Made by a program: the position numbers and the translations under genes. Below the pieces are notes generated by a model. It did not search any database, was not told where the DNA came from, and worked only from the letters and a program-made list of their open reading frames with translations. From Sedimentisphaerales bacterium (GTDB taxonomy: Bacteria > Planctomycetota > Phycisphaerae > Sedimentisphaerales > SM23-30), in assembly GCA_963666285.1 (NCBI GenBank), contig OY762711.1: a stretch of DNA of 64,000 bases. The stretch is one strand, 5' to 3'. Positions 4,331-26,310 of this stretch are shown piece by piece (within the stretch, counting starts at the first letter, position 1; the number at the start of each line of letters is the position of its first letter).

Positions 4331-4403
<73 letters not shown>

Positions 4404-5929: not shown

Positions 5930-6005
5930 TTGACGCTCCTTCTTAATATCAATCTTAATACCATCAGCTATAACACTGAAAATCAAGCCATTGTTAAAAA
6001 TTTAA

Positions 6006-7196
6006 TTATAAAGCAGCTTTGAGCACATTGACAATATCGGCTTCCGTCATTGGCGGCAATGCCGGCAGATTGCCCTTGCCATCGTTAATTATACGCAAAG
6101 TTTCTTTAGCATAAGTTACAATCTTTTCATCGGTGATATCCAGCTCTGAAAAATGCGTAGGACAGCCAATTTGCCTTAAAAACTCTTCAAATTTATCTAT
6201 GCCGGCCATAGCACAATCAATATCATCCGGCCCTTTGGCTTCCAAACCAAAAATTCGTTCGGCAAACTGCACGAATTTAGCGGTATTGCTCTTCGCTGCA
6301 AAACGCATCCAGGAAGGATTGATAATTGCCAGGCCTGCGGCATGAGTAATATCATGAAATGCTGAAACCGTGTGTTCTATCATATGAACCGGAAAGCCGG
6401 CACTGCCAGACCCGGAGCCAATCCAGCCATTTAACGCTACTATTGAAGCCCATTGCACCTGGGACCGGGCTTCCAGGTCTTCACCGTTATCGATTGCTCT
6501 CACTCCATATTCCATTGCAGCTAAAATAGCCCCTTCTGCAAAACGGTCCTGAATCGGAGTATTGTCAGAACTATTAAGATATGATTCGGTAATATGTGTA
6601 ATAATATCACAAACTCCATAGGCGGTTTGATTTTTGGGCACACTCACTGTAAGTTCCGGGTCCACAACTGCTACTTTAGGATAAAGACAACCTGTACTCA
6701 TAAATGATTTTTCAGTTGTTTCCTCGTTAGAGATTACAGCGCCGCAATTCATTTCTGAACCAGTCGCGGCCAGGGTAGGAACGGTAATTATAGGTAACGC
6801 CGCAGTAGGCACATGCACTTTTTTCTGGCCATGGTATATCATGTCCCAGGGATCACCATCATATAATGCAGCGGCTGCTATAGCCTTTGAAGCATCCATT
6901 GTACTGCCTCCGCCAAGTGCAACAACCATGTCACATTTATTCTCACGTGCAATTGCCGCGCCGCGTCGAACAGATGAAATCTTAGGATTAGGTTCGACTC
7001 CATCACATTCAAATACTGCAATTCCGGCATTAGAAAGACTTTTAGCAAGTCGGTCGAATGTGCCATTACGCTTGACGCTGCCGCCACCGGTTACAACCAG
7101 GGCACTTTTGCCAAATTTGCTTGCCGCTTCACCAATTCGTTCCAAAGAACCGGCACCAAAAATTAAATGTGTTGGATTGTAATATTCAAAATTCAT
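6006..7196 (-). CDS. Iron-containing alcohol dehydrogenase (butanol dehydrogenase-like)
   Basis: NPTHLIFG, GGGSTMD, PTLAATGSE, and His ligands HxxEH / HAAGL. Confidence 0.9.
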   Translation of the reverse strand: MNFEYYNPTHLIFGAGSLERIGEAASKFGKSALVVTGGGSVKRNGTFDRLAKSLSNAGIAVFECDGVEPNPKISSVRRGAAIARENKCDMVVALGGGSTMDASKAIAAAALYDGDPWDMIYHGQKKVHVPTAALPIITVPTLAATGSEMNCGAVISNEETTEKSFMSTGCLYPKVAVVDPELTVSVPKNQTAYGVCDIITHITESYLNSSDNTPIQDRFAEGAILAAMEYGVRAIDNGEDLEARSQVQWASIVALNGWIGSGSGSAGFPVHMIEHTVSAFHDITHAAGLAIINPSWMRFAAKSNTAKFVQFAERIFGLEAKGPDDIDCAMAGIDKFEEFLRQIGCPTHFSELDITDEKIVTYAKETLRIINDGKGNLPALPPMTEADIVNVLKAAL

Positions 7197-7231
7197 AATT
7201 ATCATCTCCATTAAAATATATTTCATTATAA

Positions 7232-8266
7232 TTAATTATTCGTAGCCGCTTCATATTCAGCATCAGTTACAGGGCCAATCCATACAACATCATTTTCGCT
7301 CATCTTCGGCGTCATGCCGACATGTACAAATTCAGAATCAGGAGCAGCTCCATGCCAATGCTCAACAGCGGCAGGTATATTAACAACATCGCCAGGCGAA
7401 AGAAGTTGAGCCTCTTTTCCCCGTTCCTGGTAATAACCAAATCCGACAGTACACAGAAGAATCTGGCCAACATCATGTTTATGCCAATAAGTGCGGGCGG
7501 CCGGTCCAAACGTAACATTATAAACAGAAATATCACATTCTTTGTTATTTGTCAGGAACGCAAGCCATGCTTTGCCGGTAAAATTGTCATCCAGTTCTAT
7601 ATCTTTGGGAAATACATCCGGCAAATGTTCACTTCTGACTAACAACAAAATAGCACTTATCTGCTCATCCGTTAAACCATTGTTTTGACCTATTACTATA
7701 TGAGCATTTAGCTGACTCTCAACCCCGCCCATTGCCGCAAGCGCCGCAATGGTTGCCAGCTCTCGAGTCCGCCAGTCAAGAGTATCTCTGGCAAAGATAT
7801 CACCAAACAGATGCGACTTTAAATACTCATCAATTGCCGGGGCGAAATCAAATAGTTCACCTTTAACAGGAAAGCCGCATAGCTCTGTCTGATTTGCCGT
7901 GCCAAAATCGATACTTTTTCCCTCTGGCAGTGGGCCGGGGATCTCTCCTTCAGTATCAACAATGCCCTTTGCCTGGCGATCTTTCAATAATTCCATAAAA
8001 TTCTGCAATGCATTCAGGCTTCGAGGAAATCCACAGTATGTATATAACTGGGTAAGTACTTCTTTAATTTCGGAAACCGTTAGTCCGGCTTCCAATCCTT
8101 CGGCCAGGGCAGCATTAAGTTTTGCCATATCACCTCTTGCCGTATACATACTTATTGTTACTATCGTATTTTCTTTAACCGTAAGGTAATTCATTGTTTG
8201 TTTCTCCGCATAACTAATATCCCCCAATAAAAAGAGAATAATTATATAAATAATACTGTATTTCAT
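7232..8266 (-). CDS. Carboxymuconolactone decarboxylase-like + cupin fusion protein, with possible signal peptide
   Basis: YCGFPRSLNAL and LFGDIFARDTLD (CMD repeats); RTYWHKH..GQIL..EHWHGA (cupin); hydrophobic N-terminus. Confidence 0.8.
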   Translation of the reverse strand: MKYSIIYIIILFLLGDISYAEKQTMNYLTVKENTIVTISMYTARGDMAKLNAALAEGLEAGLTVSEIKEVLTQLYTYCGFPRSLNALQNFMELLKDRQAKGIVDTEGEIPGPLPEGKSIDFGTANQTELCGFPVKGELFDFAPAIDEYLKSHLFGDIFARDTLDWRTRELATIAALAAMGGVESQLNAHIVIGQNNGLTDEQISAILLLVRSEHLPDVFPKDIELDDNFTGKAWLAFLTNNKECDISVYNVTFGPAARTYWHKHDVGQILLCTVGFGYYQERGKEAQLLSPGDVVNIPAAVEHWHGAAPDSEFVHVGMTPKMSENDVVWIGPVTDAEYEAATNN

Positions 8267-8274
8267 GTCCTGAC

Positions 8275-8802
8275 CTATATATTTGTTGTTTTGTTTATAT
8301 CGATCCATTCTTTCAATTTAGTTTTATTATCACTCCGTCCGGAGCCATACAAAGCAATTGCCTGCCCAAAAATTGAACCCGGACACGCTTGCTGTATATC
8401 ATTTTCACAACGAGCCATTCCCCCTCCGCCATGAGTAATAAATGGGATAACTTTTTTCCCCTTCAAATCATGACTCACAAGAAAACTTAAAACCGGCGGC
8501 GCCATTGTATGCCACCAGTTTGGTGTACCAATATAAATAACCTCGTATTTACCAATATCTTTCAGCATACCTTCCAACTCCGGCTTAAAGTGATCAGCAC
8601 ATTCTTTTTTAGCTTGAGTCACACAGTCATTATATCCATCTGGATATGCTTTGACGGGCTTGATCTCAAAAACATTACCATTCGTAAGTTTCTCGATTTC
8701 TTCTGCCGCGAGCCTGGTATTACCGCTATGGGAAAAATAGGCTATCAATACTCCATTTTGCTTCACATCTGACAATTTATTTTCACTTGCTTTGAAATCC
8801 AT
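8275..8802 (-). CDS. Flavodoxin
   Basis: IAYFSHSGNT, GTPNWW, PFITHGGGG. Confidence 0.88.
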   Translation of the reverse strand: MDFKASENKLSDVKQNGVLIAYFSHSGNTRLAAEEIEKLTNGNVFEIKPVKAYPDGYNDCVTQAKKECADHFKPELEGMLKDIGKYEVIYIGTPNWWHTMAPPVLSFLVSHDLKGKKVIPFITHGGGGMARCENDIQQACPGSIFGQAIALYGSGRSDNKTKLKEWIDINKTTNI

Positions 8803-8994
8803 TATGTCTTTTCCTTATTATAAGTACCCATATCTTCTATTATCTCACCTCATAAGTAGTATACGATATTAGAGCGGTAAAGTGGTATAACGATCCTATC
8901 TATTTCTTGCCTAAAAATACGAGGAAATGTATTTTTCTTGGTAAAATCAATAATTGATTATATAATTCATTAGAAAGGTTATAGGAGATTAAAC

Positions 8995-9927
8995 ATGGCA
9001 AACAACGAAAAACAAAGCACTTACAAAAAAAATAGTAACATCGACCACTATTTGGAGCTAAAAAACTTAATTGCACAATTAACCAGCAAAGGCGAATTAC
9101 ACACTACCTTAATACCGGAACTCTCATTATTTCGCCGAGACGAGCCAACCCAGATGGTTGCCAGCTTGTACGAACCGAGCATATGCCTGGTGATCCAGGG
9201 AGCAAAACGAGTATTCCTGGGAGATGAAACATATGAGTACAACACCTCCCGCTACTTGATAACCTCAGTAAATCTGCCCGCCACTGTACAGGTCATCGAA
9301 GCCAGCCCGGAAAAACCGTATCTCGGTCTAAAACTAAATCTTAACAGACATGAAATATCAAAGATGATGGTTAACTGCAACCTGCCTTCGCCGAAAGAAC
9401 AGAAGTCAAACCGCGGCATGGCAACCGGCGAATTAACACTCCCGCTACTGACATCTTTCCAAAGACTGGTTGACCTGCTGAACCATCCTGACGATATACC
9501 TATCCTCTCTCCATTGATCCAGAAAGAAATTATTTATCGCCTGCTGACCGGTGAACAAGGCACACGCCTGCGTCAGATCGCATCTGCCGGCAGCCAGAGC
9601 CATCATATGGCCACAGTTATCGATTGGCTCAATGACAATTTTAAGAAACAGATCACTATCGATGAATTAACAGACAAAGCGTGTATGAGCACATCAACCT
9701 TCCACCATCATTTCAAATCTATTACCGCTATGAGCCCACTGCAGTATATAAAAACATTAAGACTGCATGAAGCTCGCAGGTTAATGCTTATGGAGGATAT
9801 TGATGCCGCACACGCATCATTTCATGTAGGATATGACAGCCCTTCGCAGTTCAGCCGGGAATATAAACGACAGTTCGGCGAATCTCCGCAAAAAGACATT
9901 AAAAACCTCAGCAAGGAATTTAACTAG
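8995..9927 (+). CDS. AraC family transcriptional regulator (YqhC-like), divergent from the flavodoxin/ADH operon
   Basis: YEPSICLVIQGAK N-terminal domain; C-terminal HTH SPLQYIKTLRLHEAR..VGYDSPSQFSREYKR. Confidence 0.92.
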   Translation: MANNEKQSTYKKNSNIDHYLELKNLIAQLTSKGELHTTLIPELSLFRRDEPTQMVASLYEPSICLVIQGAKRVFLGDETYEYNTSRYLITSVNLPATVQVIEASPEKPYLGLKLNLNRHEISKMMVNCNLPSPKEQKSNRGMATGELTLPLLTSFQRLVDLLNHPDDIPILSPLIQKEIIYRLLTGEQGTRLRQIASAGSQSHHMATVIDWLNDNFKKQITIDELTDKACMSTSTFHHHFKSITAMSPLQYIKTLRLHEARRLMLMEDIDAAHASFHVGYDSPSQFSREYKRQFGESPQKDIKNLSKEFN

Positions 9928-10033: not shown

Positions 10034-11038
10034 TCACCGAGGTTCAATATACTTAATCAACTCTTCACATTTTGCATTACTAAAATCTAAATTACTGCTA
10101 ATTGAATATAAAGCATATAGTGACGGGTCAGTGAATGGCTTTTTCAAATCCAAAATATTCGACATGGTCGATATAATCCAACCACAAAGTATCCCCACCC
10201 ACATAGGCAAATAAATAGTTCTAAAATGTTTCTCAGGCATATACCGCTTCGCTATCATACGATAATAACCATCTATACTTACATTCTCCGACTCCAACAC
10301 ATTAAAGGCCTGACCATTGGCCTGGCAAAGCGAAACAGCAGCAAATATTGCTCGGGCTAGATAATCAACATGCACCAACGGCCAGCGATTTTTCCCTTTC
10401 CATTTACCAAAATGCAATATAATAGGACTTTTTCTAAGAAAATCAACCGTACGTTTGGTTAATGTTGGATCATCATCACCCCAAACCGCAGCAGGACGAA
10501 CTATACAATACTTATCCTTCGGCATATGTAATTCTATCCATTTTTCAGCAAGTATCTTATACTTCGGGTAAAAATTCTTCGCCTTATCATCAAAAGCAAG
10601 CTCTGACTCACCTTCTCCCGAAAAATCCCGCATGCCGTACACATCAGTTGTCGATATAAAGACAAACTTACCAACCTCGTTTTCCAGGCAGATTTTTACT
10701 AAATGCTGAATTGACTCATAGTTGGTTTTTCGAAAATGCACTTCCCTACCAACATCAGATGCACGCCCGGCACAATGCACAATTGCAGTTAACGGAACAT
10801 TAGCATCAGTCATACATTTTACAACCACTTCATGCATTGAATCATAGCTGCAAATGTCGCCAGACAATAAACTGACATTCCCTTTTCTTTCTAATCCATC
10901 AAGCCAGTCTGGAATATGCTGATGCGTTAACGCGTATACATACCAGCCGCGTTTAACAAACTCCAAAACAGCATGAGAACCAATAAAACCACCGGCACCA
11001 GTTACAAGCACAACCTTATCAGAACGTCTTCCAATCAC
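10034..11038 (-). CDS. Extended SDR, NAD-dependent epimerase/3-beta-HSD-like reductase
   Basis: VLVTGAGGFIG, HCAG, STTDVYG, YPKYK (YxxxK). Confidence 0.85.
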   Translation of the reverse strand: MIGRRSDKVVLVTGAGGFIGSHAVLEFVKRGWYVYALTHQHIPDWLDGLERKGNVSLLSGDICSYDSMHEVVVKCMTDANVPLTAIVHCAGRASDVGREVHFRKTNYESIQHLVKICLENEVGKFVFISTTDVYGMRDFSGEGESELAFDDKAKNFYPKYKILAEKWIELHMPKDKYCIVRPAAVWGDDDPTLTKRTVDFLRKSPIILHFGKWKGKNRWPLVHVDYLARAIFAAVSLCQANGQAFNVLESENVSIDGYYRMIAKRYMPEKHFRTIYLPMWVGILCGWIISTMSNILDLKKPFTDPSLYALYSISSNLDFSNAKCEELIKYIEPR

Positions 11039-11039
11039 T

Positions 11040-12296
11040 TTAGATTACCCTGTATTTCTTACCTGTTTCAATAATAATATCGGCAGCTCTACTTAACTGC
11101 TCTTTACTAAAACTACTCATTACACATATTCGCACACGAGCTTCCTTGTGCCTTACTGCAGGATAACTAACTATATTTGTATACACACCATCCTCAAATA
11201 ATTGCCTGTGAAATAACGCTAATTTCTCATCATCTCCTATTATAAGAGGAATTATACCGGAATTGCTTACACCAATTTCAAATCCTGCTTTTTGCAGAAT
11301 AGCCTTAAGGAAATAAATGTTTTCCCAGAGCCTGCTACGACCAGCCTTATCTTCACTAAGTAATTTAAATACCTCGACAAGGCCTGCAGCAATTGGTGCA
11401 GGTAAAGCAGTAGAAAAGAAATACGAACGAACATAAATTCTCAAATAATCTATAATCTCTTTTTTACCCGCACAATACCCACCGAGACCAGCAGGAGCCT
11501 TACTTAACATACCCACATGCATATCCACTTTATCCATAACACCATAATACTCAGCAGTTCCCCTGCCGGTAGGGCCAACTACTCCTATGCCATGAGCATC
11601 ATCAACCATCAAACGACAACGATATTCTCCTGCCAGCTCTGCAATTTCATCCAGCCTGGCCATATCACCATGCATAGAAAAGACACCATCGGTAACAATA
11701 AGTTTACCGCCATTATTACTGTCGCATTTTTCCAATATACGCCTCAAACAGCGAATATTACCATGAGGATATATCTTTATTCCTGCCCCTGAAAGCATTG
11801 CCCCATCAAATATTGATGCATGATTAGCAGAATCGTTAATTATAATATCACTCTTGCCGCACATAGCTGATATTACGCCCACATTAGTACCATAACCAGA
11901 TGGAAATACAATCGCATCCTCAGAACTATAAAAGTCTGCTATCTGTCCCTCTAACTGCTCGTGCAAATCCGTCAGACCGGCATAAAGAGAAACTGCACCC
12001 ATACCATAACCATATTTATCTATCGCTTCTTTTGCGGCTTTGATTACAACTGGATGACTATTCAGATTAAGGTATGAATTAGAACCAAGCATATAGACTT
12101 CTCTCTTACCACCCTTCTGCTCAATTTCCACTTCCGGCCGAGCATACGAACTAACTACATGACCTAAACCATCAAGTAAACCTTCCGGAGTTTCTCTCAG
12201 GCACCTTGCCAGTTCATATGCCTTATAGAATATATCATTATTTGCCACTTCGACAAAATCTTCAAAACTTTTCTTTTCAACCGTAGTATTCTTCAT
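11040..12296 (-). CDS. PLP-dependent alpha-oxoamine synthase (serine palmitoyltransferase/BioF/KBL family, SPT-like)
   Basis: GSNSYLNL, NHASIFDG, DGVFSMHGD, DDAHGIG, GMLSKAPAG (PLP Lys). Confidence 0.85.
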   Translation of the reverse strand: MKNTTVEKKSFEDFVEVANNDIFYKAYELARCLRETPEGLLDGLGHVVSSYARPEVEIEQKGGKREVYMLGSNSYLNLNSHPVVIKAAKEAIDKYGYGMGAVSLYAGLTDLHEQLEGQIADFYSSEDAIVFPSGYGTNVGVISAMCGKSDIIINDSANHASIFDGAMLSGAGIKIYPHGNIRCLRRILEKCDSNNGGKLIVTDGVFSMHGDMARLDEIAELAGEYRCRLMVDDAHGIGVVGPTGRGTAEYYGVMDKVDMHVGMLSKAPAGLGGYCAGKKEIIDYLRIYVRSYFFSTALPAPIAAGLVEVFKLLSEDKAGRSRLWENIYFLKAILQKAGFEIGVSNSGIIPLIIGDDEKLALFHRQLFEDGVYTNIVSYPAVRHKEARVRICVMSSFSKEQLSRAADIIIETGKKYRVI

Positions 12297-12350
12297 TTAC
12301 ACACCTCTCAATCCTCAATCATTCCATCTAAAATATAATGTACACGGTAT

Positions 12351-13547
12351 TTACTGACAATAACATTGCAACATTGACTTGCTATCACAATTAACAGCAC
12401 ACAAATTACAATTTGTACATTTAGACTTTTTCCAATTATTTTCCGCAATTTTACTAACAATATCCGGCTCGCAGATAAACGGCCGACACATACTAATAAT
12501 CGGAAGCTTAAAATCATTAACAATCTTTTGAATACTTTCAAGCGACCGTATTCCGCCAACAGCAAATACCGGCATGGAAGTAGATTCACTAATTTCTCTG
12601 GCTGCTGCCAGGTTATAATTCTCACTAAATGGTATAAAATGTTGCAGATAACTTTTTAACCTGAATCTTCGCCACACAGCCCGGATAATACCTGGCATTT
12701 TATTAAACAAAGGATTTACTTCAAAGACTTTACCAACAGGACAACCTCCCCTGAAAATATTCATTGCATATTCCATCGTGCCATAGCTGATCTCAACAGC
12801 ATCTGCTAATCCCTCTAATTGCTTAACCGTTTGTATTGTATCGGAAACTCTTAGCCCTCTATCATCACTATGGCTTAATTTAACCAGCACCGGATAACTT
12901 TCATCACATCTTTCCTTTATTTTACGTAATATTTCACAAAGCAGTAAACTGCGTTTACCCCACCTGTCATTCCTGTTGTTAGTATAAGGCGACAAAAACT
13001 GGTGTATCAGATATCCGTGAGCTGCATGAACCTGAATACCATCAAAACCTGCAATCTTGGCTCGACTTGCAGCCCTGGCAAAATCATCGATTATGGCTGA
13101 GATTTCAGCATCTGCCAGCATTCTCACTTTTTGCCGAAAATAACTGCACCTTTTACTACCGGCCCCTACAACTCCACAATTACTCACACTACTTAATGTC
13201 TGCCGACCAGTGTGAGCAATCTGCATTATCATTTTAACCTCAGGATACTCCCGCTTAACTTCACTGATTACTTTTTGCCAGGCCGTACAATGTCCTTCCG
13301 AAGCAATTCCAGCCTGATACCGCTGCATAGCTCGCCCCTGCCGACTGACATAACAAAAACCTGTAGCAATCGCACCAACACCACCGGCAGAAAGTCGCTT
13401 ATACAAATCAGCAAGCTTCTGAGATACTATTCCATCACTATCTGCCATGCCCTCATAAGTGGCTGATCGCATAAAACGGTTATCAACAGTAAGACTACCA
13501 AGCTTAACCTGTGTAAATAATAATTCCTTATTTGAACACACGATCAA
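12351..13547 (-). CDS. NADH:flavin oxidoreductase (old yellow enzyme family) with C-terminal Cys motif
   Basis: NRFMRSATYE, QIAHTGRQ, HAAHGYLIHQFLSP, CTNCNLC. Confidence 0.9.
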   Translation of the reverse strand: MIVCSNKELLFTQVKLGSLTVDNRFMRSATYEGMADSDGIVSQKLADLYKRLSAGGVGAIATGFCYVSRQGRAMQRYQAGIASEGHCTAWQKVISEVKREYPEVKMIMQIAHTGRQTLSSVSNCGVVGAGSKRCSYFRQKVRMLADAEISAIIDDFARAASRAKIAGFDGIQVHAAHGYLIHQFLSPYTNNRNDRWGKRSLLLCEILRKIKERCDESYPVLVKLSHSDDRGLRVSDTIQTVKQLEGLADAVEISYGTMEYAMNIFRGGCPVGKVFEVNPLFNKMPGIIRAVWRRFRLKSYLQHFIPFSENYNLAAAREISESTSMPVFAVGGIRSLESIQKIVNDFKLPIISMCRPFICEPDIVSKIAENNWKKSKCTNCNLCAVNCDSKSMLQCYCQ

Positions 13548-14490
13548 CCAACTCCAAAATCATGTTAATATATTCAGCCTTGTTAGTTATTTCTCTTGCA
13601 CAAGGCGGAATACTTTTAAGCTTTGAAAAATTACCGTTAGTATTAAAAAATATTCCATGATCGCTAGATTGTTTCACTCTTCCGATCCTGACTGAATCCA
13701 TTTCAGGCATCACCCCAACCGGTAAAGTAAACATCAACTCATATTCTCCAGCTCCGCCAAACAAAAATGCCTGCGGTGCGACCCCATTTTCTTTACAAAA
13801 TACCAATACTTCCTTATCAATGGGCAGTTCATCAGTCTGAATAGAAAATTCCAAATCAGGATTATTACCTGCAAGCGTCCATAATGAATCAATAAAACCA
13901 CCACTGGTATCAATACAACCCAATGCGTTTTTCCTGATATATTCGGCTTCGATCTTTCGCAATTCAAAAGCAGGAACCGGTTTCTCCAGCAAAGCTGCCA
14001 GGTTCGCATCACATAAACTTCCGGTAACCCATAACTCCTGCTCAATCAAAGGTAATTTTCGAGATAAATATTTCTCACCATCCAGCTCTCCAATAGCCGT
14101 TGCAGTATACCGCCAATTTGCGCCGAATCCCAGATCTCCACCTATAAGGCAGCACCCGGCATTCTCCAATACTCTACTAACCCCAACTGATAATTCGGTG
14201 GAAAATTCAACATTACCGCCCTTAGACAGCACAATTGCATGAATATAATATTTTGGAATTGCACCACAGGCATACAGATCGCTGAGAACAGCAATTGCCA
14301 TATTACTCCCTAACACAGCAGCCCCAGGATCGCCGAACATATCTTCATCGGAAAACTCATCCATTGTAACCGCAATATTGCCGCCAGATACTTTTACAAT
14401 TTCCGCATCACATTCAAAAGATTTATTCAGCTGATCATCACTGCGATCGAACTGGCCAAGTATATTCTCAATTATTGCTTGTTCACGCAT
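13528..14490 (-). CDS. Divergent ThiL-like kinase (PurM/AIRS fold)
   Basis: AVLSDLYACGA, LIGGD, VTGSL, IDTSGG and GGAGEYEL correspond to ThiL motifs with substitutions. Confidence 0.7.
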   Translation of the reverse strand: MREQAIIENILGQFDRSDDQLNKSFECDAEIVKVSGGNIAVTMDEFSDEDMFGDPGAAVLGSNMAIAVLSDLYACGAIPKYYIHAIVLSKGGNVEFSTELSVGVSRVLENAGCCLIGGDLGFGANWRYTATAIGELDGEKYLSRKLPLIEQELWVTGSLCDANLAALLEKPVPAFELRKIEAEYIRKNALGCIDTSGGFIDSLWTLAGNNPDLEFSIQTDELPIDKEVLVFCKENGVAPQAFLFGGAGEYELMFTLPVGVMPEMDSVRIGRVKQSSDHGIFFNTNGNFSKLKSIPPCAREITNKAEYINMILELVDRVFK

Positions 14491-15400
14491 ATTCTATCCC
14501 TAACAGTTCGATTGCCCCCGGAACGATTTTCGCTTTAACAGGTAAATACCCCTTACTATCTCCATCAAATTCAACCTTTACTGAACCTGACCCATACACT
14601 TCAAGTTTCACAAACTCACTTAACCAGAGTTTTCCTTCTACCTCCAGCTTCTTAAGCGTAAACAAATCTCCTTTATAAAACTCTGGCAGAAGTTTCAACA
14701 ACCCCATTTTCCCTTTTGCCATTATCGCTAAAACATAAGCTTTCCCATCATCAGCAGAGATATCCAAACCAACTTTAATGCCTGAAGCTATATATGGATT
14801 CTTTATTATCATTATGTGAATACATGATTTTAAACTCTGCTTTTCCCCATCAACCATTACATCCAGATCATGTGGCTTATTCACTAGCAATGCTTTTATC
14901 AAACCGAATAATGTACCAAGTCTGTCACCAAAATATTTCCTGTACTTATTAGAAAAATCTGCAACATCTGACCCTAAACCAATATTTGAACTGCAGCCAA
15001 AATACCCTGTTGCGGCTTTACCGCTTTTATCTTTATATTCAATCTGAACCAGGTCAATCTTACTGCTCCTTTCACTCAAAATCACATCCACAGCCTTACC
15101 TGGCTCAACAGGCAAATTATGAAATTTGCAGAAATCAGGACTTGTGCCAGAATATAAAACTCCCATAATGCGGTTCTTTTCTCTCTGCATCACACCATTT
15201 ATGACCTCATTTATCATCCCATCACCGCCAACCGCAACTGCAATTTCCTCATTTGCCGCGGCAATCTCTGTAGCATGCCCTGGATATTCCGTTTCCATCT
15301 GACCAAAATCAACTTTAGATTTTCGCAATCTATCCAACATCACCGGCCAGAGCTTTCTCCCTTTGCCGAATCTTGAATGTGAACACATTATAAGCAGCAT
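14483..15400 (-). CDS. Diacylglycerol/sphingosine kinase family (YegS/DgkB-like)
   Basis: TEYPGHA, AVGGDGMINEVING, GTSPDF, EFDGD. Confidence 0.88.
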   Translation of the reverse strand: MLLIMCSHSRFGKGRKLWPVMLDRLRKSKVDFGQMETEYPGHATEIAAANEEIAVAVGGDGMINEVINGVMQREKNRIMGVLYSGTSPDFCKFHNLPVEPGKAVDVILSERSSKIDLVQIEYKDKSGKAATGYFGCSSNIGLGSDVADFSNKYRKYFGDRLGTLFGLIKALLVNKPHDLDVMVDGEKQSLKSCIHIMIIKNPYIASGIKVGLDISADDGKAYVLAIMAKGKMGLLKLLPEFYKGDLFTLKKLEVEGKLWLSEFVKLEVYGSGSVKVEFDGDSKGYLPVKAKIVPGAIELLGIEYA

Positions 15401-16704
15401 TATTTCCCACCATTCATATTTCTACGGTATATCCCAAGTTTCTTATAAAGCTTAGTCTCCTTACCCCTATCCCATTTCCCAACCAATTCCCTGGTATATT
15501 TCCAGGGTACAGGAGTGTGTGTAAGACCATACTTTTCAACAAGCCCGGCAATCCCCTCAGCCTGGCTGCAGCAGAGCCAATCTTCACATGGATAAGGGAA
15601 ACAACTCCTCATACGATCAAAAACCTCATCAAAACCCTCTTCGACGATATTTCCAAATGAAATATTCAGGAATTCACATGGCTGCATTTCACCTGCGGCA
15701 TTAATATAGAATCTGTCAATTGCTCCGGCAGTACAACCAAGGCCATCTGGCCGTTCTTCAAACACCTGGGCAGCCAGGGCAGGAAACTCCTTTTTGCATG
15801 ATGAGTTATATTCTTTATGCTTATCTCGAACTGCCTCAATATGCCTTTTATGCTGAACAATATCTTTACCTGAAGCCAGCCACTTCCCTGCTGGTTTTGG
15901 ATGGATAAGCTGCACAAACTGAACATCAAGTTTTTTGGCAAGCTCCATCAACCTGTCCAACTTACCACAATCCAGCTGTTGGGCTGTTAAAACACTATTA
16001 ATTGCTATCACAAGCCCAAGTTCTCTTGCCATACCAATTGCGTTACATGCTGCATTAAAAGAACCTTCAACGCCGGTAAACAAATCATGCTCAACTGCAT
16101 CAGGTGAATGTATAGAAACCATCAGTCCAAAAAGTCCTTTACCCTGCAACTCCAGAAGTTGCTCCCTGCTCACTGACCTGCCATGAGTATTTACCCATAC
16201 CTCACTTTTGTCGTCAAAAACTTCTAAAAGCTTACTCAAACGGTCAAATAGCAAAAATGGCTCCCCACCTTCAATATCAAACATAGCTACACCCTTTTCA
16301 CGCAGCTTTATTGCGACTTGCTGAAGATGCTCAAGAGCAATATCATTACCTCCATCTTTTCGCTGATAACAATGTGGACAATGGAAATCGCATGCACGCG
16401 TCATACTGTAAACAATTGTTACCGGTCGTGCCGGGCTATGGATAAGCTTTGATTCGATTGCATGAAAGAAAGCACCGGTTGGATATGCTGGCAAATATAA
16501 ATGAATTTTATAACCACTGGGGACTTTCACAGGCTTATCCGGCCAGAAAGTTTTTAACAATATTGATGCACGCCATAAAAAACTGGGATATCTTTTGGGA
16601 TTAACCCTAAACATGTAGTAAAACATCACATGCAATGCTATTCGAACATATAGCATTAGTTTTGGCACCCCGGTTATTTGCCTGGTCTGGTTAGTATATT
16701 TCAT
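15400..16704 (-). CDS. Radical SAM protein with SPASM/twitch-like C-terminal domain
   Basis: CDFHCPHC (CxxxCxxC), GGEP, GCTAG..YINAAGEMQPC. Confidence 0.9.
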   Translation of the reverse strand: MKYTNQTRQITGVPKLMLYVRIALHVMFYYMFRVNPKRYPSFLWRASILLKTFWPDKPVKVPSGYKIHLYLPAYPTGAFFHAIESKLIHSPARPVTIVYSMTRACDFHCPHCYQRKDGGNDIALEHLQQVAIKLREKGVAMFDIEGGEPFLLFDRLSKLLEVFDDKSEVWVNTHGRSVSREQLLELQGKGLFGLMVSIHSPDAVEHDLFTGVEGSFNAACNAIGMARELGLVIAINSVLTAQQLDCGKLDRLMELAKKLDVQFVQLIHPKPAGKWLASGKDIVQHKRHIEAVRDKHKEYNSSCKKEFPALAAQVFEERPDGLGCTAGAIDRFYINAAGEMQPCEFLNISFGNIVEEGFDEVFDRMRSCFPYPCEDWLCCSQAEGIAGLVEKYGLTHTPVPWKYTRELVGKWDRGKETKLYKKLGIYRRNMNGGK

Positions 16705-16707
16705 TTT

Positions 16708-17694
16708 CTACGCCTTCGTATCACCATAATGACTGAAGAAAAACTGGATCAATATATAACTTGCAATCATAAGATATAATGCCAGAGTCCCATCAAAAAT
16801 TGCTATCAGGGAAACCTGCCCAGCAACACATGCCTGTATATTTGTTACAAGACTGAAATACGTTTTTTGCCCGTACGGGTTAGTAAAAAACAGATATGCT
16901 GTCCAACATTGCAAAAACAATGTCACCAGACAGCAAAACAAAAATGTCTTCTGATACAGAATTGACTCCACTGGAAGCCAATCTATTGTTATAAAAAACA
17001 CTAATGCTATCGCTGATATAAATGCTCCAATAATCCCGGCATAGCGACCTATATTTATACCATACCGTACAATAAAAGTCTTTTTCCCCGCAGCTTTATC
17101 GCCTTGATAATCTTTGAAATATGTATAATACGTCATTACCGCATTTAATATTGCTACTAATATTAAACCTGTTATCCTGTTACTTGTGAAAAATGGGTCC
17201 AATAGCGGACCACACGCCAGGAAACCATACGCCGTACACATGGATATCATAATACCAAAAACAATATTTCCTGTCAGGCTCCACGCTTTTGCATATTCAT
17301 ATAAAACATTTAACAATATACCTAAAACTGCCGGAATAATTGCCCAGGGATTCAATAGCCAACTTATAAATATCATAAATATAAGAAAAAAAATAGTTAC
17401 TACTAATGCACATTTGGGATCCAACTCACCTGTCACCATAGGCCTGTTAGGAGCATTGATTTTATCTTCTTCCAATCCAAGATAATCATTAATGATCTGA
17501 TTAATTCCCCAGCTCAAAAAAAGCATAGCTAATATCAGCATCAGCCTTTCATTAGATACAGCTCCATCCACCTTAAAATTATAAAAAGACACACCCACCC
17601 AACCTGCTATCCCTGTAACAAAAGCATAGTATAATCGCATTGACTTTATGTACGCCTTTGTAAAACCCATAACTTTTTTCAATTCTAACTCCAT
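16708..17694 (-). CDS. UbiA-family intramembrane prenyltransferase (DGGGP/chlorophyll-synthase-like motifs)
   Basis: About 9 TM segments; NDYLGLEEDKINAPNRP and KDYQGDKAAGKKT. Start at ATG 17694 with a GAGGA RBS. Confidence 0.85.
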   Translation of the reverse strand: MELELKKVMGFTKAYIKSMRLYYAFVTGIAGWVGVSFYNFKVDGAVSNERLMLILAMLFLSWGINQIINDYLGLEEDKINAPNRPMVTGELDPKCALVVTIFFLIFMIFISWLLNPWAIIPAVLGILLNVLYEYAKAWSLTGNIVFGIMISMCTAYGFLACGPLLDPFFTSNRITGLILVAILNAVMTYYTYFKDYQGDKAAGKKTFIVRYGINIGRYAGIIGAFISAIALVFFITIDWLPVESILYQKTFLFCCLVTLFLQCWTAYLFFTNPYGQKTYFSLVTNIQACVAGQVSLIAIFDGTLALYLMIASYILIQFFFSHYGDTKA

Positions 17695-17749
17695 TTTTCT
17701 ATCCTCAAATTCCAAAAAACTCTCATAAAAACACCAAAATAATATCCAA

Positions 17750-18322
17750 CTATAGATTCAGTATGTTTTTATCCAACATTTTCTCTCTCATCGAATCACC
17801 AAAAAGCTCTAAGTGTTTGCCTATTGTTATCATTGTCCCAATCCCAATCAAACGCCATGCTGTCGATTCTGCAAAATCTGTAACATCCTGCTTATTATTC
17901 CCATAATAACTTAAAATCATATCAACCAGGTACCTGTGAATACGATTATACATTTCTTGCAGCACTTTTTTTATATCCGGCTCATCTACCTCATTTAAGC
18001 CGGAAAAGATAATCATATAATGCCCCAATTCGGCAAAATGGGTTGATTCATAATCAAACAGTACTTCAAGCGGCTTGTTCTCCTGAAGCGTTTTGGATAT
18101 TTGCCTTTCCCAAATCTCAAGAATATTATCCGTCAGATATTTCACAGAAGCGACAAACATTGCCTTTTTGTCTTCCCATAATCGATAAAGTATCGCTTCC
18201 TTCACCCCACATTCATTGGCAATCGCAGACGTAGTCGCACGGCGATATCCAAGACACGCAAAAGCCTTAGCCACTAATGGAAGCATTTCTTTACGCTTTT
18301 CATATCTTTTATCTGTTTTCAT
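17750..18322 (-). CDS. TetR family transcriptional regulator
   Basis: N-terminal HTH AFACLGYRRATTSAIANECGVKEAILYRLWEDK. Confidence 0.9.
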   Translation of the reverse strand: MKTDKRYEKRKEMLPLVAKAFACLGYRRATTSAIANECGVKEAILYRLWEDKKAMFVASVKYLTDNILEIWERQISKTLQENKPLEVLFDYESTHFAELGHYMIIFSGLNEVDEPDIKKVLQEMYNRIHRYLVDMILSYYGNNKQDVTDFAESTAWRLIGIGTMITIGKHLELFGDSMREKMLDKNILNL

Positions 18323-18339
18323 TCTTAAATCCTCAAAAC

Positions 18340-18372
18340 GTTAGCAAACACTAACTGTTAGTAAATGCTAAC
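18340..18372. promoter_or_regulatory. Tandem palindromic operator, probably for the TetR protein
   Basis: GTTAG-CAAACA-CTAAC (18340-18355) and GTTAG-TAAATG-CTAAC (18357-18372), directly upstream of the tetR start. Confidence 0.65.
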
Positions 18373-18423
18373 ACTATTATCAGCAGAATGCAAAATAATT
18401 CTCAAAAAAATATGAGAGAAACC

Positions 18424-18544: not shown

Positions 18545-18584
18545 GCATGCAAGAGGTCGTCGGTTCGTTCCCGATCGGCTCCAT
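18545..18584 (+). repeat. attR-like copy of the tRNA-Ala 3' end
   Basis: 39/40 identical to 4365-4404; 5' half of the tRNA is absent. Confidence 0.92.
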
Positions 18585-18590
18585 ATAACA

Positions 18591-18630
18591 AAAAACGCCC
18601 TACAGAATTATTAACTGTAAGGCGTTTTTA
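18591..18630. terminator. Bidirectional intrinsic terminator after the attR-like site
   Basis: AAAAACGCCCTACAG..CTGTAAGGCGTTTTT imperfect hairpin. Confidence 0.65.
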
Positions 18631-18782: not shown

Positions 18783-19454
18783 TTATCTTTTGGTAGCTAA
18801 AGCAGCTTCTGCCACCCTTTGACCTAATTGAACAGCAGTTTTGATACCAAACTCATCCTTAGTAATATCATCATTGTAGGCATTAACCAGGGTGGCTCCC
18901 TGGTGAGCGCCAGGCTTTCCACCTACAATCATAGCTTCATGGCAAAGAAGTGCCGCTTGTATTTGCTGAATACCCATTTCCTGCCCGCCATTCCTATAAG
19001 CACCGACAGTCAATGCACCAACCGGCACATTGGCTAACTTCAGCTCAGGTTTTCGTAAAACCGCTATACGCTCTAAAAATGACATACAAACTGAACTGAT
19101 ATTCCGAAAATATATAGGAGAGCCAATTATCATGCCATCCGGGTATGGGTCTTTAAGTTTAGGCAGAACAAGATCTGTAAAATGATCTTGCTGAAATTTA
19201 CCAGTGCTGTTCCAGCCAGAGAAATACAATTCACCCAAATCTATCAATTCAACTTGAATCTGGTTTGATATTTTACTAGCCGCATCCAAGGCAACCTGCA
19301 CTGCTGTTGCAGTTGTCTTACCTTTTCTTGGACTGCAACTAATACCGACAATTCTAACCTTACCTTCTGTTTCATCTTTTGCCTGAGCTTGTGAAGCAAA
19401 CGCAACGACTCCACCAACAGCTGCACTTTTAGCTATAAAACTTCGTCTATCCAT
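18783..19454 (-). CDS. Tat-exported flavodoxin-like / NADPH-dependent FMN reductase family protein
   Basis: MDRRSFIAK twin-arginine signal; SCSPRKGKT, GSPIYF, GAYRNGGQE. Confidence 0.82.
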   Translation of the reverse strand: MDRRSFIAKSAAVGGVVAFASQAQAKDETEGKVRIVGISCSPRKGKTTATAVQVALDAASKISNQIQVELIDLGELYFSGWNSTGKFQQDHFTDLVLPKLKDPYPDGMIIGSPIYFRNISSVCMSFLERIAVLRKPELKLANVPVGALTVGAYRNGGQEMGIQQIQAALLCHEAMIVGGKPGAHQGATLVNAYNDDITKDEFGIKTAVQLGQRVAEAALATKR

Positions 19455-19487
19455 AATAATACTCCTGATGTAAAAATGATTATGCAA

Positions 19488-20186
19488 TTAAGGAGCTGTA
19501 TAAATCAGCCACACACCTCCTATAAGGACTAGAACACCACATATTTTCTTCAATATAACTGAACCTTTGGATTTATCATTCCAATTCATATACCGCTGAA
19601 CGATTTCAGTAAACGTTCCCGCAAAAATAATCACAGAACAATGCCCTACACCATAGGTAAATAATAAAAGAATACCATATGAGAGGTTAGTAGAAGAAAG
19701 CTTAAATGTTACACCAAGCATTGGAGCCATATATGCAAAAGTACACGGCCCAAGCGCAATTCCAAACACAAGACCAAGGATAAATGCAGCAAGCAACCCT
19801 TTCTTCTTCATACCTATCTGCCCTGGACCGGATAACGGAATATTTATGACTTCAAGCAGATGCAGCCCCACAACAAAGAATATCAATGCTACAAAATAAT
19901 TGCCATATTGACCTATATCACCCATCATCCTGCCAGCGGCGGCAGTTATTGCACCTATAGCACCGATTGTAATCAAAATCCCAACTGAAAACAGGGTTGA
20001 TATCCAGAAAGCCCGCCTGGTAGATATTCGACCCTGTTCATCAATAAATCCAATTATCAGTGGAATACTGGCAAGATGACACGGACTTAGTACAATGCTT
20101 AGCACACCCCATATAAAAGAGGCAAGCAATGCGATAAACCAGGCTCCTTCAACGGCATTTGTTAGCTCGGTAAATAATTCCTGCAT
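19488..20186 (-). CDS. ccdA: CcdA/DsbD-type transmembrane thiol-disulfide electron transporter
   Basis: LSPCHL and LGPCTF motifs; 6 TM segments. Confidence 0.85.
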   Translation of the reverse strand: MQELFTELTNAVEGAWFIALLASFIWGVLSIVLSPCHLASIPLIIGFIDEQGRISTRRAFWISTLFSVGILITIGAIGAITAAAGRMMGDIGQYGNYFVALIFFVVGLHLLEVINIPLSGPGQIGMKKKGLLAAFILGLVFGIALGPCTFAYMAPMLGVTFKLSSTNLSYGILLLFTYGVGHCSVIIFAGTFTEIVQRYMNWNDKSKGSVILKKICGVLVLIGGVWLIYTAP

Positions 20187-20187
20187 A

Positions 20188-21108
20188 CTATTTTATTTCC
20201 AAAACATCAATCTTATTAATAATATCTTCTTCTGTATAAAAACCACTATGCCGGAAAACTTCTTTTCCCATATCGTCAAAAATAATTTGTGTTGGTATTG
20301 ACTTTACTCCATACCTTGCCGACAAAACCTGTTGCTCTTTTGCATTAATATATACTATATTCAGCTGATCTTTATATTTATTTGTCAGTGCGTCACGTAT
20401 CGGAGCCATCTTATCCGGACCGCAACAGCTGGCAGCACTAAAAATAGCAATAGTAGCTTTCTCACTGCTTCTTGCCATATCCAGTAAATTATTTTGCGAG
20501 ATTAAGGCCTGCTCCTTAAGCCAATTACCTGCAATAGAAATATCATATTTAAGACCGATGTTCTTTATATATTCAGCAACAAGAGATAGCTTTTTTTCTT
20601 GCAAAACATAAGATTTAATTTGCTCTTTTACTGCTGACAGTGGTGTCCCATTAAACACACTGACGTTTTCTTCATAAAACTTTTCAACTTCCTGGTCATT
20701 AACAGAGGTGTCGGCAAGCATATTTTCCAAATAGGCAGATATACTATTATTATCATTTTTAGACTGTATGTTATTTTTAGCATTTTCTTCCAGGGCAATA
20801 TCAGCCAGGATCTGTTTACCTGCATACTGCTCGAGAACAAACAGTAAATTTTCTTCCAACTCTGCACGAACCAGGCCGGGTTGAGATGTGATATAGTCCT
20901 TCAAGTCCTTTTCATTAATCTCAATATTTTTATACTTCAGAATAGTTCCATTTTTCAGATCTAATATTTTAGCATAGGTCAAAACACCTGTAGTTAAACT
21001 GGGATATACTTCATTTACAATATTTGACTTAACCGTAACTCTTTCTGCTGCAATTGACAGACTCCCAATTAACAGGAATATAAACATATAATAGCAATTA
21101 GTTTTCAT
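20188..21108 (-). CDS. Secreted protein with SurA/PrsA-like helical region and C-terminal thioredoxin-like domain (CC instead of CxxC)
   Basis: Signal peptide; VNDQEVEKFYEEN..VKEQIKSYV; AASCCGPDKM..YGVKSIPTQIIFD..RHSGF. Confidence 0.7.
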   Translation of the reverse strand: MKTNCYYMFIFLLIGSLSIAAERVTVKSNIVNEVYPSLTTGVLTYAKILDLKNGTILKYKNIEINEKDLKDYITSQPGLVRAELEENLLFVLEQYAGKQILADIALEENAKNNIQSKNDNNSISAYLENMLADTSVNDQEVEKFYEENVSVFNGTPLSAVKEQIKSYVLQEKKLSLVAEYIKNIGLKYDISIAGNWLKEQALISQNNLLDMARSSEKATIAIFSAASCCGPDKMAPIRDALTNKYKDQLNIVYINAKEQQVLSARYGVKSIPTQIIFDDMGKEVFRHSGFYTEEDIINKIDVLEIK

Positions 21109-21538
21109 TTTTGTCGCCTTTCTCAGCATCAACTCCAAATTCTTTCCACTTACCTAAGATGTCTTCTTTTGAGAAAAATCCTTCATGCCTGAAAATCTCT
21201 TTTCCAGAGGCATCAATAAATATTTGTGTTGGGATCAGGTTTATACCATACTTCTCTTTTTCACCAGGATTTTCCCAGACATCAATAAAATTCACATTGA
21301 ATGAATCTTTACATTCCACCTTCAGCTCTTCCAGAATCGGAGCCATCATTTTACATGGAATGCATTTGCCTGCACCAAGATCAATTAGAGTTGGTAAGTC
21401 AGAATTGATATTGCCTGCAATTTGCTTTTCCTGGCCAGAGTCTGTAACAGGCAAATCTTTTTTGTCTTGCTTTGCCAAAAAAGCTATCGCCACTACTACC
21501 AACAAAGCTACTACAATAATTATATTGGTTTTTTTCAT
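21098..21538 (-). CDS. Membrane-anchored thioredoxin family protein
   Basis: GAGKCIPCKMM, IPTQIF, N-terminal TM segment. Confidence 0.9.
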   Translation of the reverse strand: MKKTNIIIVVALLVVVAIAFLAKQDKKDLPVTDSGQEKQIAGNINSDLPTLIDLGAGKCIPCKMMAPILEELKVECKDSFNVNFIDVWENPGEKEKYGINLIPTQIFIDASGKEIFRHEGFFSKEDILGKWKEFGVDAEKGDKNEN

Positions 21539-21627
21539 TATTATAACTCCTTAAAAAATGCATTATCACAGAACAAATTCATACTGCCTCAGCAATTATC
21601 ATAATAGTATAAATCTGTTAAGCAATC

Positions 21628-22002
21628 TTATTGCAGCATTTCCTTTGCTTTAGAAACAACTTTTCCAACATTCTCTTCATTTGCAGGGCTATTGCCTTTT
21701 TCAAGGCCTAAATCTGCCAGCTGAAGATGATCAAACTTGCAGAAACCTGCCTGCTCTAAAGAATTTTTCACACAATTCAGAGGACAACCATCAATAGCCA
21801 GAACCTGCTCTGCCGCTTCAGTAGTTTTCATAATGCCACTGACACGTCCACCAATTCCAGCTAGACAGAACATTTTGCCGGAACCATCTTTGGTTAACTT
21901 TCGTGCTGCCTGATCCGACACCGCTCCTACATCGGCTGCTCCGGAGCAGGCGAAAATCAACTTTGTGCCACCGCTGCATACACATGATTTTTCTGTACTC
22001 AT
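21628..22002 (-). CDS. DGC-domain putative zinc-binding protein
   Basis: FACSGAADVG, MFCLAGIGG, AIDGCPLNC. Confidence 0.85.
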   Translation of the reverse strand: MSTEKSCVCSGGTKLIFACSGAADVGAVSDQAARKLTKDGSGKMFCLAGIGGRVSGIMKTTEAAEQVLAIDGCPLNCVKNSLEQAGFCKFDHLQLADLGLEKGNSPANEENVGKVVSKAKEMLQ

Positions 22003-22043
22003 AACAATTCCTTTTTATCGTCTTAGAAAATTATCAATATTAA

Positions 22044-22277
22044 TTAAGCTAACATAGCCTTAATATCATCAGCAGACAATACTTTCCCTGCCGATTTAAC
22101 TTCACCATCAATTGCAATCGCAGGTGTTACCATTACACCCATTGCCATTATATCATTAAGTTGAGTTACCTTTTCAATCTCAGCCTCAATTCCAAGTTCA
22201 CTAACCGCAGCTTTTGCATTACCTGCAAGTTTTTCGCATTTGGCACATCCTGTACCTAGTATTTGTATTTTTTTCAT
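22044..22277 (-). CDS. Small redox-active disulfide protein (MTH895/TM0996 glutaredoxin-like)
   Basis: MKKIQILGTGCAKC..GVMVTPAIAIDG. Confidence 0.9.
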   Translation of the reverse strand: MKKIQILGTGCAKCEKLAGNAKAAVSELGIEAEIEKVTQLNDIMAMGVMVTPAIAIDGEVKSAGKVLSADDIKAMLA

Positions 22278-22290
22278 TGTTATTTCTCCA

Positions 22291-23763: not shown

Positions 23764-23820
23764 AATAATATCCTCACTGGGTTATTTGCACATATTACCA
23801 AGTGTTATCCTAAAAAAAGA

Positions 23821-26289: not shown

Positions 26290-26310
26290 GATTATTTTTC
26301 CATTTGATTG

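Follow-up and report, generated by a model that had tools for sequence, protein, structure and literature searches.

Digeranylgeranylglyceryl phosphate synthase (DGGGPS), a UbiA-type enzyme, takes a lipid 1-phosphate as acceptor, and activation of a monophosphate to a diphosphate before coupling occurs with hydroxymethylpyrimidine diphosphate and with MfnE. The bacterial sphingolipid core (Spt, an acyl carrier protein (ACP), CerR, and bCerS) and its kinases of the diacylglycerol kinase (DAGK) family, CpgB and dhSphK1, are described in 10.1101/2023.05.01.538943 and PMC11334938. Here these systems are compared with an operon at positions 10034..18372 of contig OY762711.1 from a Sedimentisphaerales bacterium (assembly GCA_963666285.1), positions being counted within the 64,000-nt stretch that was analyzed (the window). 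Eight minus-strand open reading frames (ORFs) are tightly packed there in the order tetR, ubiA, radical SAM (rSAM), DAGK, thiL-like, old yellow enzyme (OYE), alpha-oxoamine synthase (AOS), and short-chain dehydrogenase/reductase (SDR). The seven enzyme genes (7.7 kb) very probably constitute one undescribed pathway acting on a fatty-acyl amino-acid product, which is a safer statement than any single route through them. By analogy, the cassette resembles the first half of bacterial sphingolipid synthesis combined with the last step of archaeal ether-lipid synthesis, but it does not qualify as a member of either.

The Pfam domains, in gene order, are TetR_N, UbiA, Radical_SAM with SPASM, DAGK_cat with YegS_C, AIRS (ThiL/PurM fold), Oxidored_FMN, Aminotran_1_2, and Epimerase/3Beta_HSD (coordinates are given in Table 1). 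All ORFs and domains agree with an earlier sequence-only reading of this DNA, which named eight co-directional genes of these families, and re-measured junctions confirm its description of overlapping or nearly abutting enzyme genes. Thus, ubiA and the rSAM gene are separated by 3 bp, the rSAM/DAGK junction is TAATG at 15400, DAGK and the thiL-like gene overlap by 8 bp (14483-14490), and the thiL-like gene and OYE overlap by up to 20 bp (13528-13547), provided that OYE starts at TTG. The largest gap, 54 bp, lies between OYE and AOS, and 1 bp separates AOS from SDR. As for the start of ubiA, ATG 17694 is more likely, being preceded by AGGA and lying 55 bp after tetR. Contigs from two runs of a single sample, from which the assembly may derive, have identical letters across the operon. 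According to NCBIfam, all seven enzyme proteins fall under every cut-off. The novelty is at the level of the gene set: the families are known, none of the members passes as a known enzyme, and no described pathway joining an oxoamine synthase, two kinases, and UbiA was found. Literature searches, which covered mostly journals open without subscription and main texts only, returned no account of this cassette; this absence and the conservation described below support the single undescribed pathway proposed by the sequence-only reading.

Relatives found with a 40-sequence rSAM alignment numbered 254 for species genomes and 233 for metagenomes; the best 80 of each were used (160 loci). Since clustering of neighboring genes dropped shadowed ORFs and hid some real genes in high-GC loci, counts are taken from a profile census. 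Gene order was recorded for the 68 loci having at least 1.3 kb upstream and at least 6.5 kb downstream; some loci are near-duplicates, and the order counts are therefore not independent. The full order ubiA-rSAM-DAGK-thiL-OYE-AOS-SDR is present in 47 of the 68 (32 of 45 for species genomes only), followed by the otherwise complete set without OYE (9), ubiA-OYE...AOS-SDR-rSAM-DAGK-thiL (4), ubiA flipped to the end (2), and one other shuffled order, with 5 loci being partial. The thiL-like gene directly follows DAGK in 64 of the 68. Because 47 loci keep the full order, the gene set is far beyond chance; the sequence-only reading had regarded a gene set missing from other genomes as fatal to its proposal, and the synteny check finds it shared. 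According to submitters' record titles, from which phylum labels were taken, the full order occurs under nine labels (Planctomycetota, Verrucomicrobiota, Lentisphaerota, Kiritimatiellota, Armatimonadota, Elusimicrobiota, Melainabacteria, Acidobacteriota, and Auribacterota), and rearranged forms occur in Riflebacteria and Neomarinimicrobiota. Judged by lineage, the carriers would be mostly anaerobes. The named isolate genome of Elusimicrobium posterum Dip510 (L077) holds the full gene set. The cassette is rare: a close rSAM ortholog is present in 2 of 25 host-family genomes, whereas for ubiA the counts are 2 of 401 in the host phylum and 2 of 151 in another phylum. A quick rSAM tree (71 rows, without duplicates and loci covering <85% of the query) places Elusimicrobiota in two places and unites Elusimicrobium, Gastranaerophilales, and Lentisphaerales genomes with support 100, a pattern that fits horizontal spread.

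Genomes with broken clusters usually retain the displaced genes at other sites: OYE in G026 (54%), ubiA-OYE and the thiL-like gene in G030, and the thiL-like gene in G031. In G514, ubiA-OYE lies on one contig and ACP-AOS-DAGK-thiL-KS-SDR-rSAM (KS, ketosynthase) on another. In G032 and G033 the query used here detected no OYE, which is considered optional for that reason. Variant clusters include an ACP, a FabF-like KS, a double hot-dog dehydratase, and MMPL, and fusions are of 2 kinds, ACP::AOS in L167 and SDR::rSAM in L164 and 19 clusters at 90%. The ACP, KS, and dehydratase variants together with the ACP::AOS fusion point to a pathway tied to acyl-ACP, which is probably the substrate. These genes, with MMPL, also support the fatty-acyl substrate assumed in the sequence-only reading, and the SDR::rSAM fusions suggest that the two enzymes are adjacent in the pathway. 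Conserved neighbors include no prenyl-diphosphate synthase (annotated neighbors), no bCerS-type N-acyltransferase (neighborhoods of the 160 loci rather than whole genomes), and no precursor of a ribosomally synthesized and post-translationally modified peptide (clustered ORFs of at least 80 aa).

The Riflebacteria KS (L075:4458-5702, L081:4683-5936) keeps the Cys motif SSSCTS, with two FabF His positions seemingly replaced, and judging from these residues may be a transacylase or a non-elongating KS.

Regarding the synthase, catalytic H159, D232, H235, K266, and R389 are invariant in 41 of 41 sequences. The amino-acid gate residue is Val in 74, Pro in 5, and Thr in 1 of 80 (including one non-cassette paralog from L089) and never Ser, and the residue after the gate is Ser, Pro, or Ala in 79 of 80, compared with Arg in KBL. 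The gate Val is common to KBL and ThAOS, whereas serine palmitoyltransferase (SPT) has Ser (ThAOS V79 / SpSPT S102). According to PMC11906848, the wild-type ThAOS enzyme, in which this gate is likewise Val, accepts Gly, Ala, and Ser. The NCBIfam Spt models give 340/640, 305/500, and 245/670 bits (score/cut-off, here and below), all below cut-off, and the best of the 41 members reaches E 1e-112 against the CFB Spt model, compared with 6e-206 for a true SPT. In a 28-row tree without alphaproteobacterial Spt, the synthase forms its own clade with support 99/97. Its union with 4 SPT-like rows, one of them over the cut-off, is rejected by the approximately unbiased test (p-AU 0.025, LG+G4); the same test does not reject a clade with KBL (p-AU 0.37). 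The KBL and BioF models score 366/460 and 339/426 bits, respectively, both below cut-off, and the host carries kbl-tdh over the cut-off elsewhere as well as bioF (406/426 bits) beside bioB. Sub-cut-off scores and these host genes rule out the plain KBL or BioF ortholog that the sequence-only reading had named as a threat to its proposal, and the Val gate, the Spt scores, and the rejected union rule out an SPT ortholog. The term 'sphingolipid-like enzymes' used in that reading therefore stands as an analogy only. Like the sphingolipid core, the cassette combines an oxoamine synthase, an extended SDR, and a GGDG lipid kinase, to which variants add an ACP of their own. In contrast, its synthase lies outside the SPT clade with Val instead of Ser at the gate, no N-acyltransferase is conserved, its kinase is 27% like that of the Parabacteroides locus L191, and it adds UbiA, the ThiL-like kinase, rSAM, and OYE.

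Among the nine best plasmid matches of the synthase, seven are PigH-type, including the first five; the three inspected lie inside pig clusters and are 40-42% identical over the full length, N-terminal extension included. PigH-type synthases as sampled are 40-43% identical to the cassette enzyme and share the N-terminal extension and a YLRFY stretch with it. With 28 rows PigH is sister to the cassette clade (89/93); with 104 rows it is one of several unresolved neighbors, beside FAAL-ACP-AOS, KS-ACP-AOS, and AOS-GNAT proteins, the neighbors being mostly ACP-, FAAL-, KS-, PilZ-, or GNAT-fused synthases. PigH as a proven sister was thus dropped after wider sampling. L070, L167, and G514 have a more distant synthase type, for which a single origin is not rejected (p-AU 0.11). 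The clade B tree of Spt-like proteins in the supplements of PMC11334938 may include these synthases.

Several other synthases were noted. A large group of uncharacterized oxoamine synthases is fused to PilZ, receiver, STAS, GNAT/FemAB, or PAP2 domains (P0244, P0250, P0253, P0274, P0310, P0361, P0383, and others), which suggests c-di-GMP-controlled synthesis of an amino-lipid or signal. Prodigiosin-type pig clusters lie on alphaproteobacterial plasmids of Methylocystis iwaonis (L186) and Thioclava (L187). SPT-clade synthases occur on Gram-positive plasmids of Rubrobacter (L189:7941-11308) and Priestia (L192:5878-7092); in the former, a hypothetical gene and then an extended SDR come next, an Spt-bCerS-CerR-like layout. 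The genome of E. posterum Dip510 contains a further oxoamine synthase with one in-frame TGA (L203, G025:C1:1046357-1047547).

The UbiA model has a pLDDT of 96, and its best Foldseek match is 6m31 (E 7e-8). The nearest solved relatives are DGGGPS (6m31) and ChlG (9sas), with a TM-score of 0.63, 19% identity, and profile E-values of 5e-17 and 5e-9, so that in sequence the enzyme is nearest to these O-alkylating transferases. Like ChlG, it has Q before motif 1 and the second motif FKx..GD. Residues R27, N76, D77, D84, Y139, K143, D202, and D206, which we take to be the diphosphate site, are kept in 111 of 111 sequences. In contrast to DGGGPS and ChlG, the second Asp of motif 1 (NDxxD) is replaced by Gly (102) or Asn (9 of 111), Glu83 is newly invariant, and GGGPS/PcrB (PF01884) is found in none of the 5 carriers searched, with control matches in 5 of 14. 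The protein is not a DGGGPS ortholog, scoring 68.5/353 bits, far below the cut-off of that model. About a thousand proteins (1129 matches) are concerned; some are labeled 'geranylgeranylglycerol-phosphate geranylgeranyltransferase', which is no evidence for archaeal lipids in bacteria.

A hydrophobic, probably four-helix protein of 123-132 aa without a Pfam match is encoded in 6 loci (L069:188-580, L078-L080, L048, L167:7956-8354). It adjoins ubiA in 5 of them and is a candidate flippase or accessory subunit.

As for the kinases, GGDG is present in 109 of 109 DAGK-type proteins, which have a two-domain fold. The ThiL-like protein has the PurM fold, with ThiL nearest among solved structures, and its best profile match is ThiL (1e-29), followed by HypE (4e-12), PurM (2e-9), and SelD (2e-5). 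In common with ThiL, it has D28, D44, D71, D194, and S196, all invariant. However, it is not a ThiL ortholog: it scores 100.6/184 bits against TIGR01379, compared with 233 bits for the true host thiL elsewhere. In alignments, the His of 'xxHF' and the first acid of 'GG(E/D)DYEL', presumably thiamine-binding positions, are replaced. This enzyme, which was given no role in the sequence-only reading, is the best clue to the substrate of UbiA.

The rSAM enzyme keeps C105/C109/C112 and C324/C343/C378 in 134 of 134 sequences. Its model has a pLDDT of 91, and the nearest folds are SkfB (Z 23.7) and BlsE (21.5). It thus shares the fold, CX3CX2C, and three invariant auxiliary Cys with SPASM/twitch enzymes (SkfB, BlsE, anSME, viperin, DesII), whereas identity does not exceed 19%, hydrophobic moments indicate N-terminal amphipathic helices, and the enzyme is SDR-fused in some genomes. 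The best named subfamily scores 99.9/400 bits, below cut-off; fold searches singled out no particular radical SAM reaction, and ESM Atlas returned only generic rSAM/SPASM clusters. The complex prediction for SDR and rSAM scored 0.00, which has no bearing for or against contact. OYE has H174/H177/Y179 in 77 of 77 sequences and four Cys in 75-76 of them, and SDR has S129 and K161 in 71 of 71 and Y157 in 70.

Tentatively, the cassette is read as a horizontally spread, self-contained pathway for an undescribed membrane amino-lipid, in which UbiA is fed by a home-made diphosphate donor. We infer substrates, order of steps, and product as follows. A small amino acid, probably serine, would be condensed with acyl-ACP by the synthase (1), and the ketone of the resulting 2-amino-3-oxo chain would be reduced by SDR, giving a sphingoid-like amino-alcohol (2). 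The rSAM enzyme would perform an adjacent oxygen-independent step, likeliest a dehydrogenation or dehydration, which would place a C=C beside the future leaving-group carbon (3). The DAGK-type kinase would phosphorylate the alcohol (4), the ThiL-like kinase would make the diphosphate (5), and UbiA would displace pyrophosphate and couple the chain to an oxygen nucleophile, yielding an ether or ester (6). Finally, the optional OYE might reduce the leftover C=C (7). An alcohol kinase followed by a phosphate kinase, adjacent in nearly all loci, would produce the kind of substrate that UbiA consumes. Further points in favor of this diphosphate-donor pathway are that the kinases stay linked to the synthase module in split clusters (G514, Riflebacteria), that a verified SPT lies beside a DAGK-family kinase in Parabacteroides (L191), and that kinases turning a phosphate into a diphosphate are the closest relatives of the ThiL-like protein, a true ThiL being encoded elsewhere in the host. 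The conserved gene order, the retention of displaced genes, the ACP, KS, dehydratase, and MMPL genes and the fusions of variants, the invariant UbiA residues and the relatedness to O-alkylating DGGGPS and ChlG, the lack of a prenyl-diphosphate synthase among annotated conserved neighbors and of GGGPS in the 5 carriers searched, and the amino-acid range of ThAOS with its Val gate also count in favor.

Several points weigh against this pathway. To our knowledge, described UbiA donors are allylic or oxocarbenium-forming diphosphates, and a sphingoid 1-diphosphate is neither. The radical step (3), which is a guess, carries the whole model, the donor being non-allylic without it. The Val gate fits glycine or alanine equally, neither of which would give a primary alcohol. 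The 9.8-kb contig of L167 encodes AOS, DAGK, SDR, rSAM, and UbiA but lacks a thiL-like gene, and a second DAGK replaces the thiL-like gene in 0 of 161 loci. A ThiL over the cut-off is missing in 4 of 5 other carriers, which leaves a thiamine role possible there. Finally, this copy deviates at near-invariant positions of both kinases: DAGK has Met62, the residue following GGDG, where 108 of 109 have Thr (T62M; codon 15215-15217, the letter being confirmed by contigs of one sample), and the ThiL-like protein has Cys160 where 101 of 102 have Gly (G160C), yet 20-29% of other members deviate as often. Judging from these replacements, both kinases may have lost activity in part or changed their specificity. 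With 0 deviations in 5 of 7 proteins, a general decay of this copy is unsupported.

Should the diphosphate-donor pathway be correct, anaerobes of many phyla might have a third route to a two-part membrane lipid, with a radical SAM-activated backbone of fatty acid and amino acid, a DAGK/ThiL relay to a non-isoprenoid diphosphate, and UbiA coupling; we put this forward with reserve. The product could perhaps be a lipid with an ether or amine linkage, or one of the dipyrrole type. It would stand for a new class of lipids, made by UbiA, ThiL-fold, and radical SAM enzymes with new chemistry, and the UbiA would be the first shown with a sphingoid- or pyrrole-derived donor. Lipid surveys of anoxic settings report many unexplained sphingoid-type structures (PMC11334938). 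The cassette would be a possible source of unassigned nitrogen lipids in anoxic waters, sediments, and guts, and a gene marker for unassigned lipids of anoxic settings.

Among the alternatives, the one that survives best, though we rate it as rather unlikely, reverses the roles of the substrates. The phosphorylated amino-alcohol would be the acceptor, mimicking lyso-type geranylgeranylglyceryl phosphate, and UbiA would add a host prenyl group from farnesyl, geranylgeranyl, or polyprenyl diphosphate to O or N. The ThiL-like kinase would recycle prenyl phosphate or add the terminal diphosphate, and OYE would reduce C=C, resulting in a sphingoid-isoprenoid hybrid. Such a route needs known UbiA chemistry only and suits DGGGPS as the nearest solved relative with its lipid 1-phosphate acceptor; ubiA and OYE are paired in split clusters (L070, the L075 group, L088, L174, L197), and L167 without a thiL-like gene also fits. 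However, the near-constant position of the thiL-like gene right after DAGK and its grouping with AOS/DAGK, not with ubiA-OYE, in G514 and Riflebacteria are hard to reconcile with prenyl donors, and the Gly or Asn in UbiA motif 1 hints at a changed donor site. Moreover, an alkene has to be activated for OYE-type enzymes to reduce it, and an isolated prenyl C=C is not.

An improbable pyrrole route would start from a beta-ketoacyl-ACP and serine or glycine, as with PigH/RedN or RedL, and cyclize to an alkyl-pyrrole or alkyl-pyrrole-methanol. The kinases would generate a pyrrolyl-methyl diphosphate in the manner of thiamine or methanofuran assembly, UbiA would replace PigC, and SDR, rSAM, and OYE would set the redox state without oxygen. 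PigH/RedL chemistry is described in PMC11188435. Among the synthases sampled, PigH/RedN and RedL/RedK are the closest characterized type and likewise involve an ACP-tethered substrate. The plasmid matches, the 28-row sister position, and KS with ACP in variants agree with this route, and a heteroaryl-methyl diphosphate would be a good carbocation donor. In contrast, the 104-row tree removes the special position of PigH, the gate motif is TGCRL in PigH and GAVSL in the cassette synthase, the synthases of L070, L167, and G514 are more distant, and most loci have neither KS nor ACP. UbiA is of the O-alkylating type, no other pig or red gene is among conserved neighbors, and the fused ACPs are lacking.

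It is quite improbable that the cassette salvages or detoxifies a lipid alcohol from the environment, such as phytol, farnesol, or a sphingoid base. Two-step conversion of an alcohol to phosphate and diphosphate exists in phytol and farnesol salvage, and here the kinases would make such a diphosphate from the imported alcohol. UbiA would then attach it to a host lipid or to the product of AOS and SDR, with ligand control by TetR or MarR. In favor of salvage, these regulators are upstream in 4 and 11 loci, respectively, and the distribution is patchy and island-borne, whereas ACP, KS, and dehydratase indicate de novo synthesis, and no importer is conserved, MMPL being the only transporter inside variants. 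Chance assembly of ordinary kbl/bioF, thiL, lipid kinase, and quinone prenyltransferase genes on an island, suggested by automatic names such as that of UbiA above, by best NCBIfam matches to housekeeping families, and by the KBL union that is not rejected, can be dismissed, being refuted by synteny under nine phylum labels, fusions, and retention of displaced genes, with sub-cut-off scores of all seven proteins and host kbl-tdh, bioF-bioB, and thiL elsewhere also against it.

Table 1. Features of the operon and its surroundings (positions within the window)
Feature	Position	Strand	Remark
tRNA-Ala(GGC), left island boundary	4331..4403	+	
Extended SDR, 3beta-HSD/OleD/CerR-like; rSAM-fused in other genomes	10034..11038	-	
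PLP alpha-oxoamine synthase, own clade, gate motif GAVSLYAG	11040..12296	-	
Old-yellow-enzyme-type flavin ene-reductase, C-terminal CxxCxxC...C, optional	12351..13547	-	
ThiL-like kinase paralog, probable monophosphate-to-diphosphate kinase	13528..14490	-	profile comparison
DAGK/YegS-family lipid kinase, motif GGDG...GTSPDF	14483..15400	-	
Radical SAM enzyme, SPASM/twitch-type C-terminus, N-terminal amphipathic helices	15400..16704	-	
UbiA-superfamily membrane transferase, DGGGPS/ChlG-like, motif NQxxNDxLGxxED	16708..17694	-	ORF reaches TTG 17715
TetR-family regulator, lineage-local	17750..18322	-	PF00440
Two tandem GTTAG-N6-CTAAC inverted repeats, probable TetR operator	18339..18373	-	function inferred from sequence
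48-bp copy of tRNA-Ala 3' half, att-like right boundary	18545..18592	+	blastn 92% over 48 bp

The tandem repeats lie just downstream of a promoter-like TTGAGA-18-GATAAT at 18405-18376; such sites are not more frequent in the region than expected by chance. The genome contains 5 exact sites with the repeat spacing, 2 of them here, and other spacings give 1-4. A wider TetR regulon is unsupported, the 3 other genomic sites being near background. With at most 1 mismatch, the motif precedes both tetR and ubiA in L009, L089, and L090, three of the four other loci with tetR, and in 0 of 157 other loci. A tetR homolog is present in only 4 of 160 loci, and a MarR-type family takes its place in 11.

The tRNA-Ala island described in the sequence-only reading is borne out by the duplicated tRNA 3' half and by content absent from the same site in congeners, with no integrase among the 53 window ORFs scanned (a part of all ORFs). 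Congeners have the upstream aminotransferase-V gene and the tRNA in common and differ in the DNA after the tRNA; the tRNA-Ala site is an integration hotspot. The GC fraction of the operon genes (0.36-0.42) is not distinct from that of the genome (0.41). No credible excision joint was found in contigs of the sample, and ubiA relatives are absent from the plasmids and viral contigs searched, so that no vector was found. In congener G013, a block of Fe-ADH, CMD-cupin, flavodoxin, and AraC genes occupies a different site, where the lipid operon is missing, and the island is therefore a mosaic.

In the window, the left half of the island (4625-9927) encodes a PQQ/BamB-type beta-propeller, Fe-ADH, CMD-cupin, flavodoxin, and a divergent AraC. 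To the right of the att-like copy, 18783-24141 encodes ArsR, an ArsP permease, a DGC protein, two thioredoxins, a DsbD-TM protein, and a Tat-like FMN reductase. In both congeners checked, the tRNA is not followed by this arsenic/redox-type module, which is possibly a second tandem insert. After adhE, a sensory-type [FeFe]-hydrogenase cluster (24594-32337) comprises a PAS-bearing hydrogenase, an SpoIIE phosphatase, a 2Fe-2S protein, and a second hydrogenase; the [FeFe]-hydrogenase and AdhE-type neighbor genes suggest an anaerobic host. Congener G012 (C1:3144034-3199565) carries its own insert of ~55 kb at the same tRNA-Ala, with a 44-bp repeat of the tRNA 3' end at the far side. Contigs C2-C4 of G000 are 65.6, 65.6, and 66.6 kb long with near-equal GC and are possibly variants of one element.

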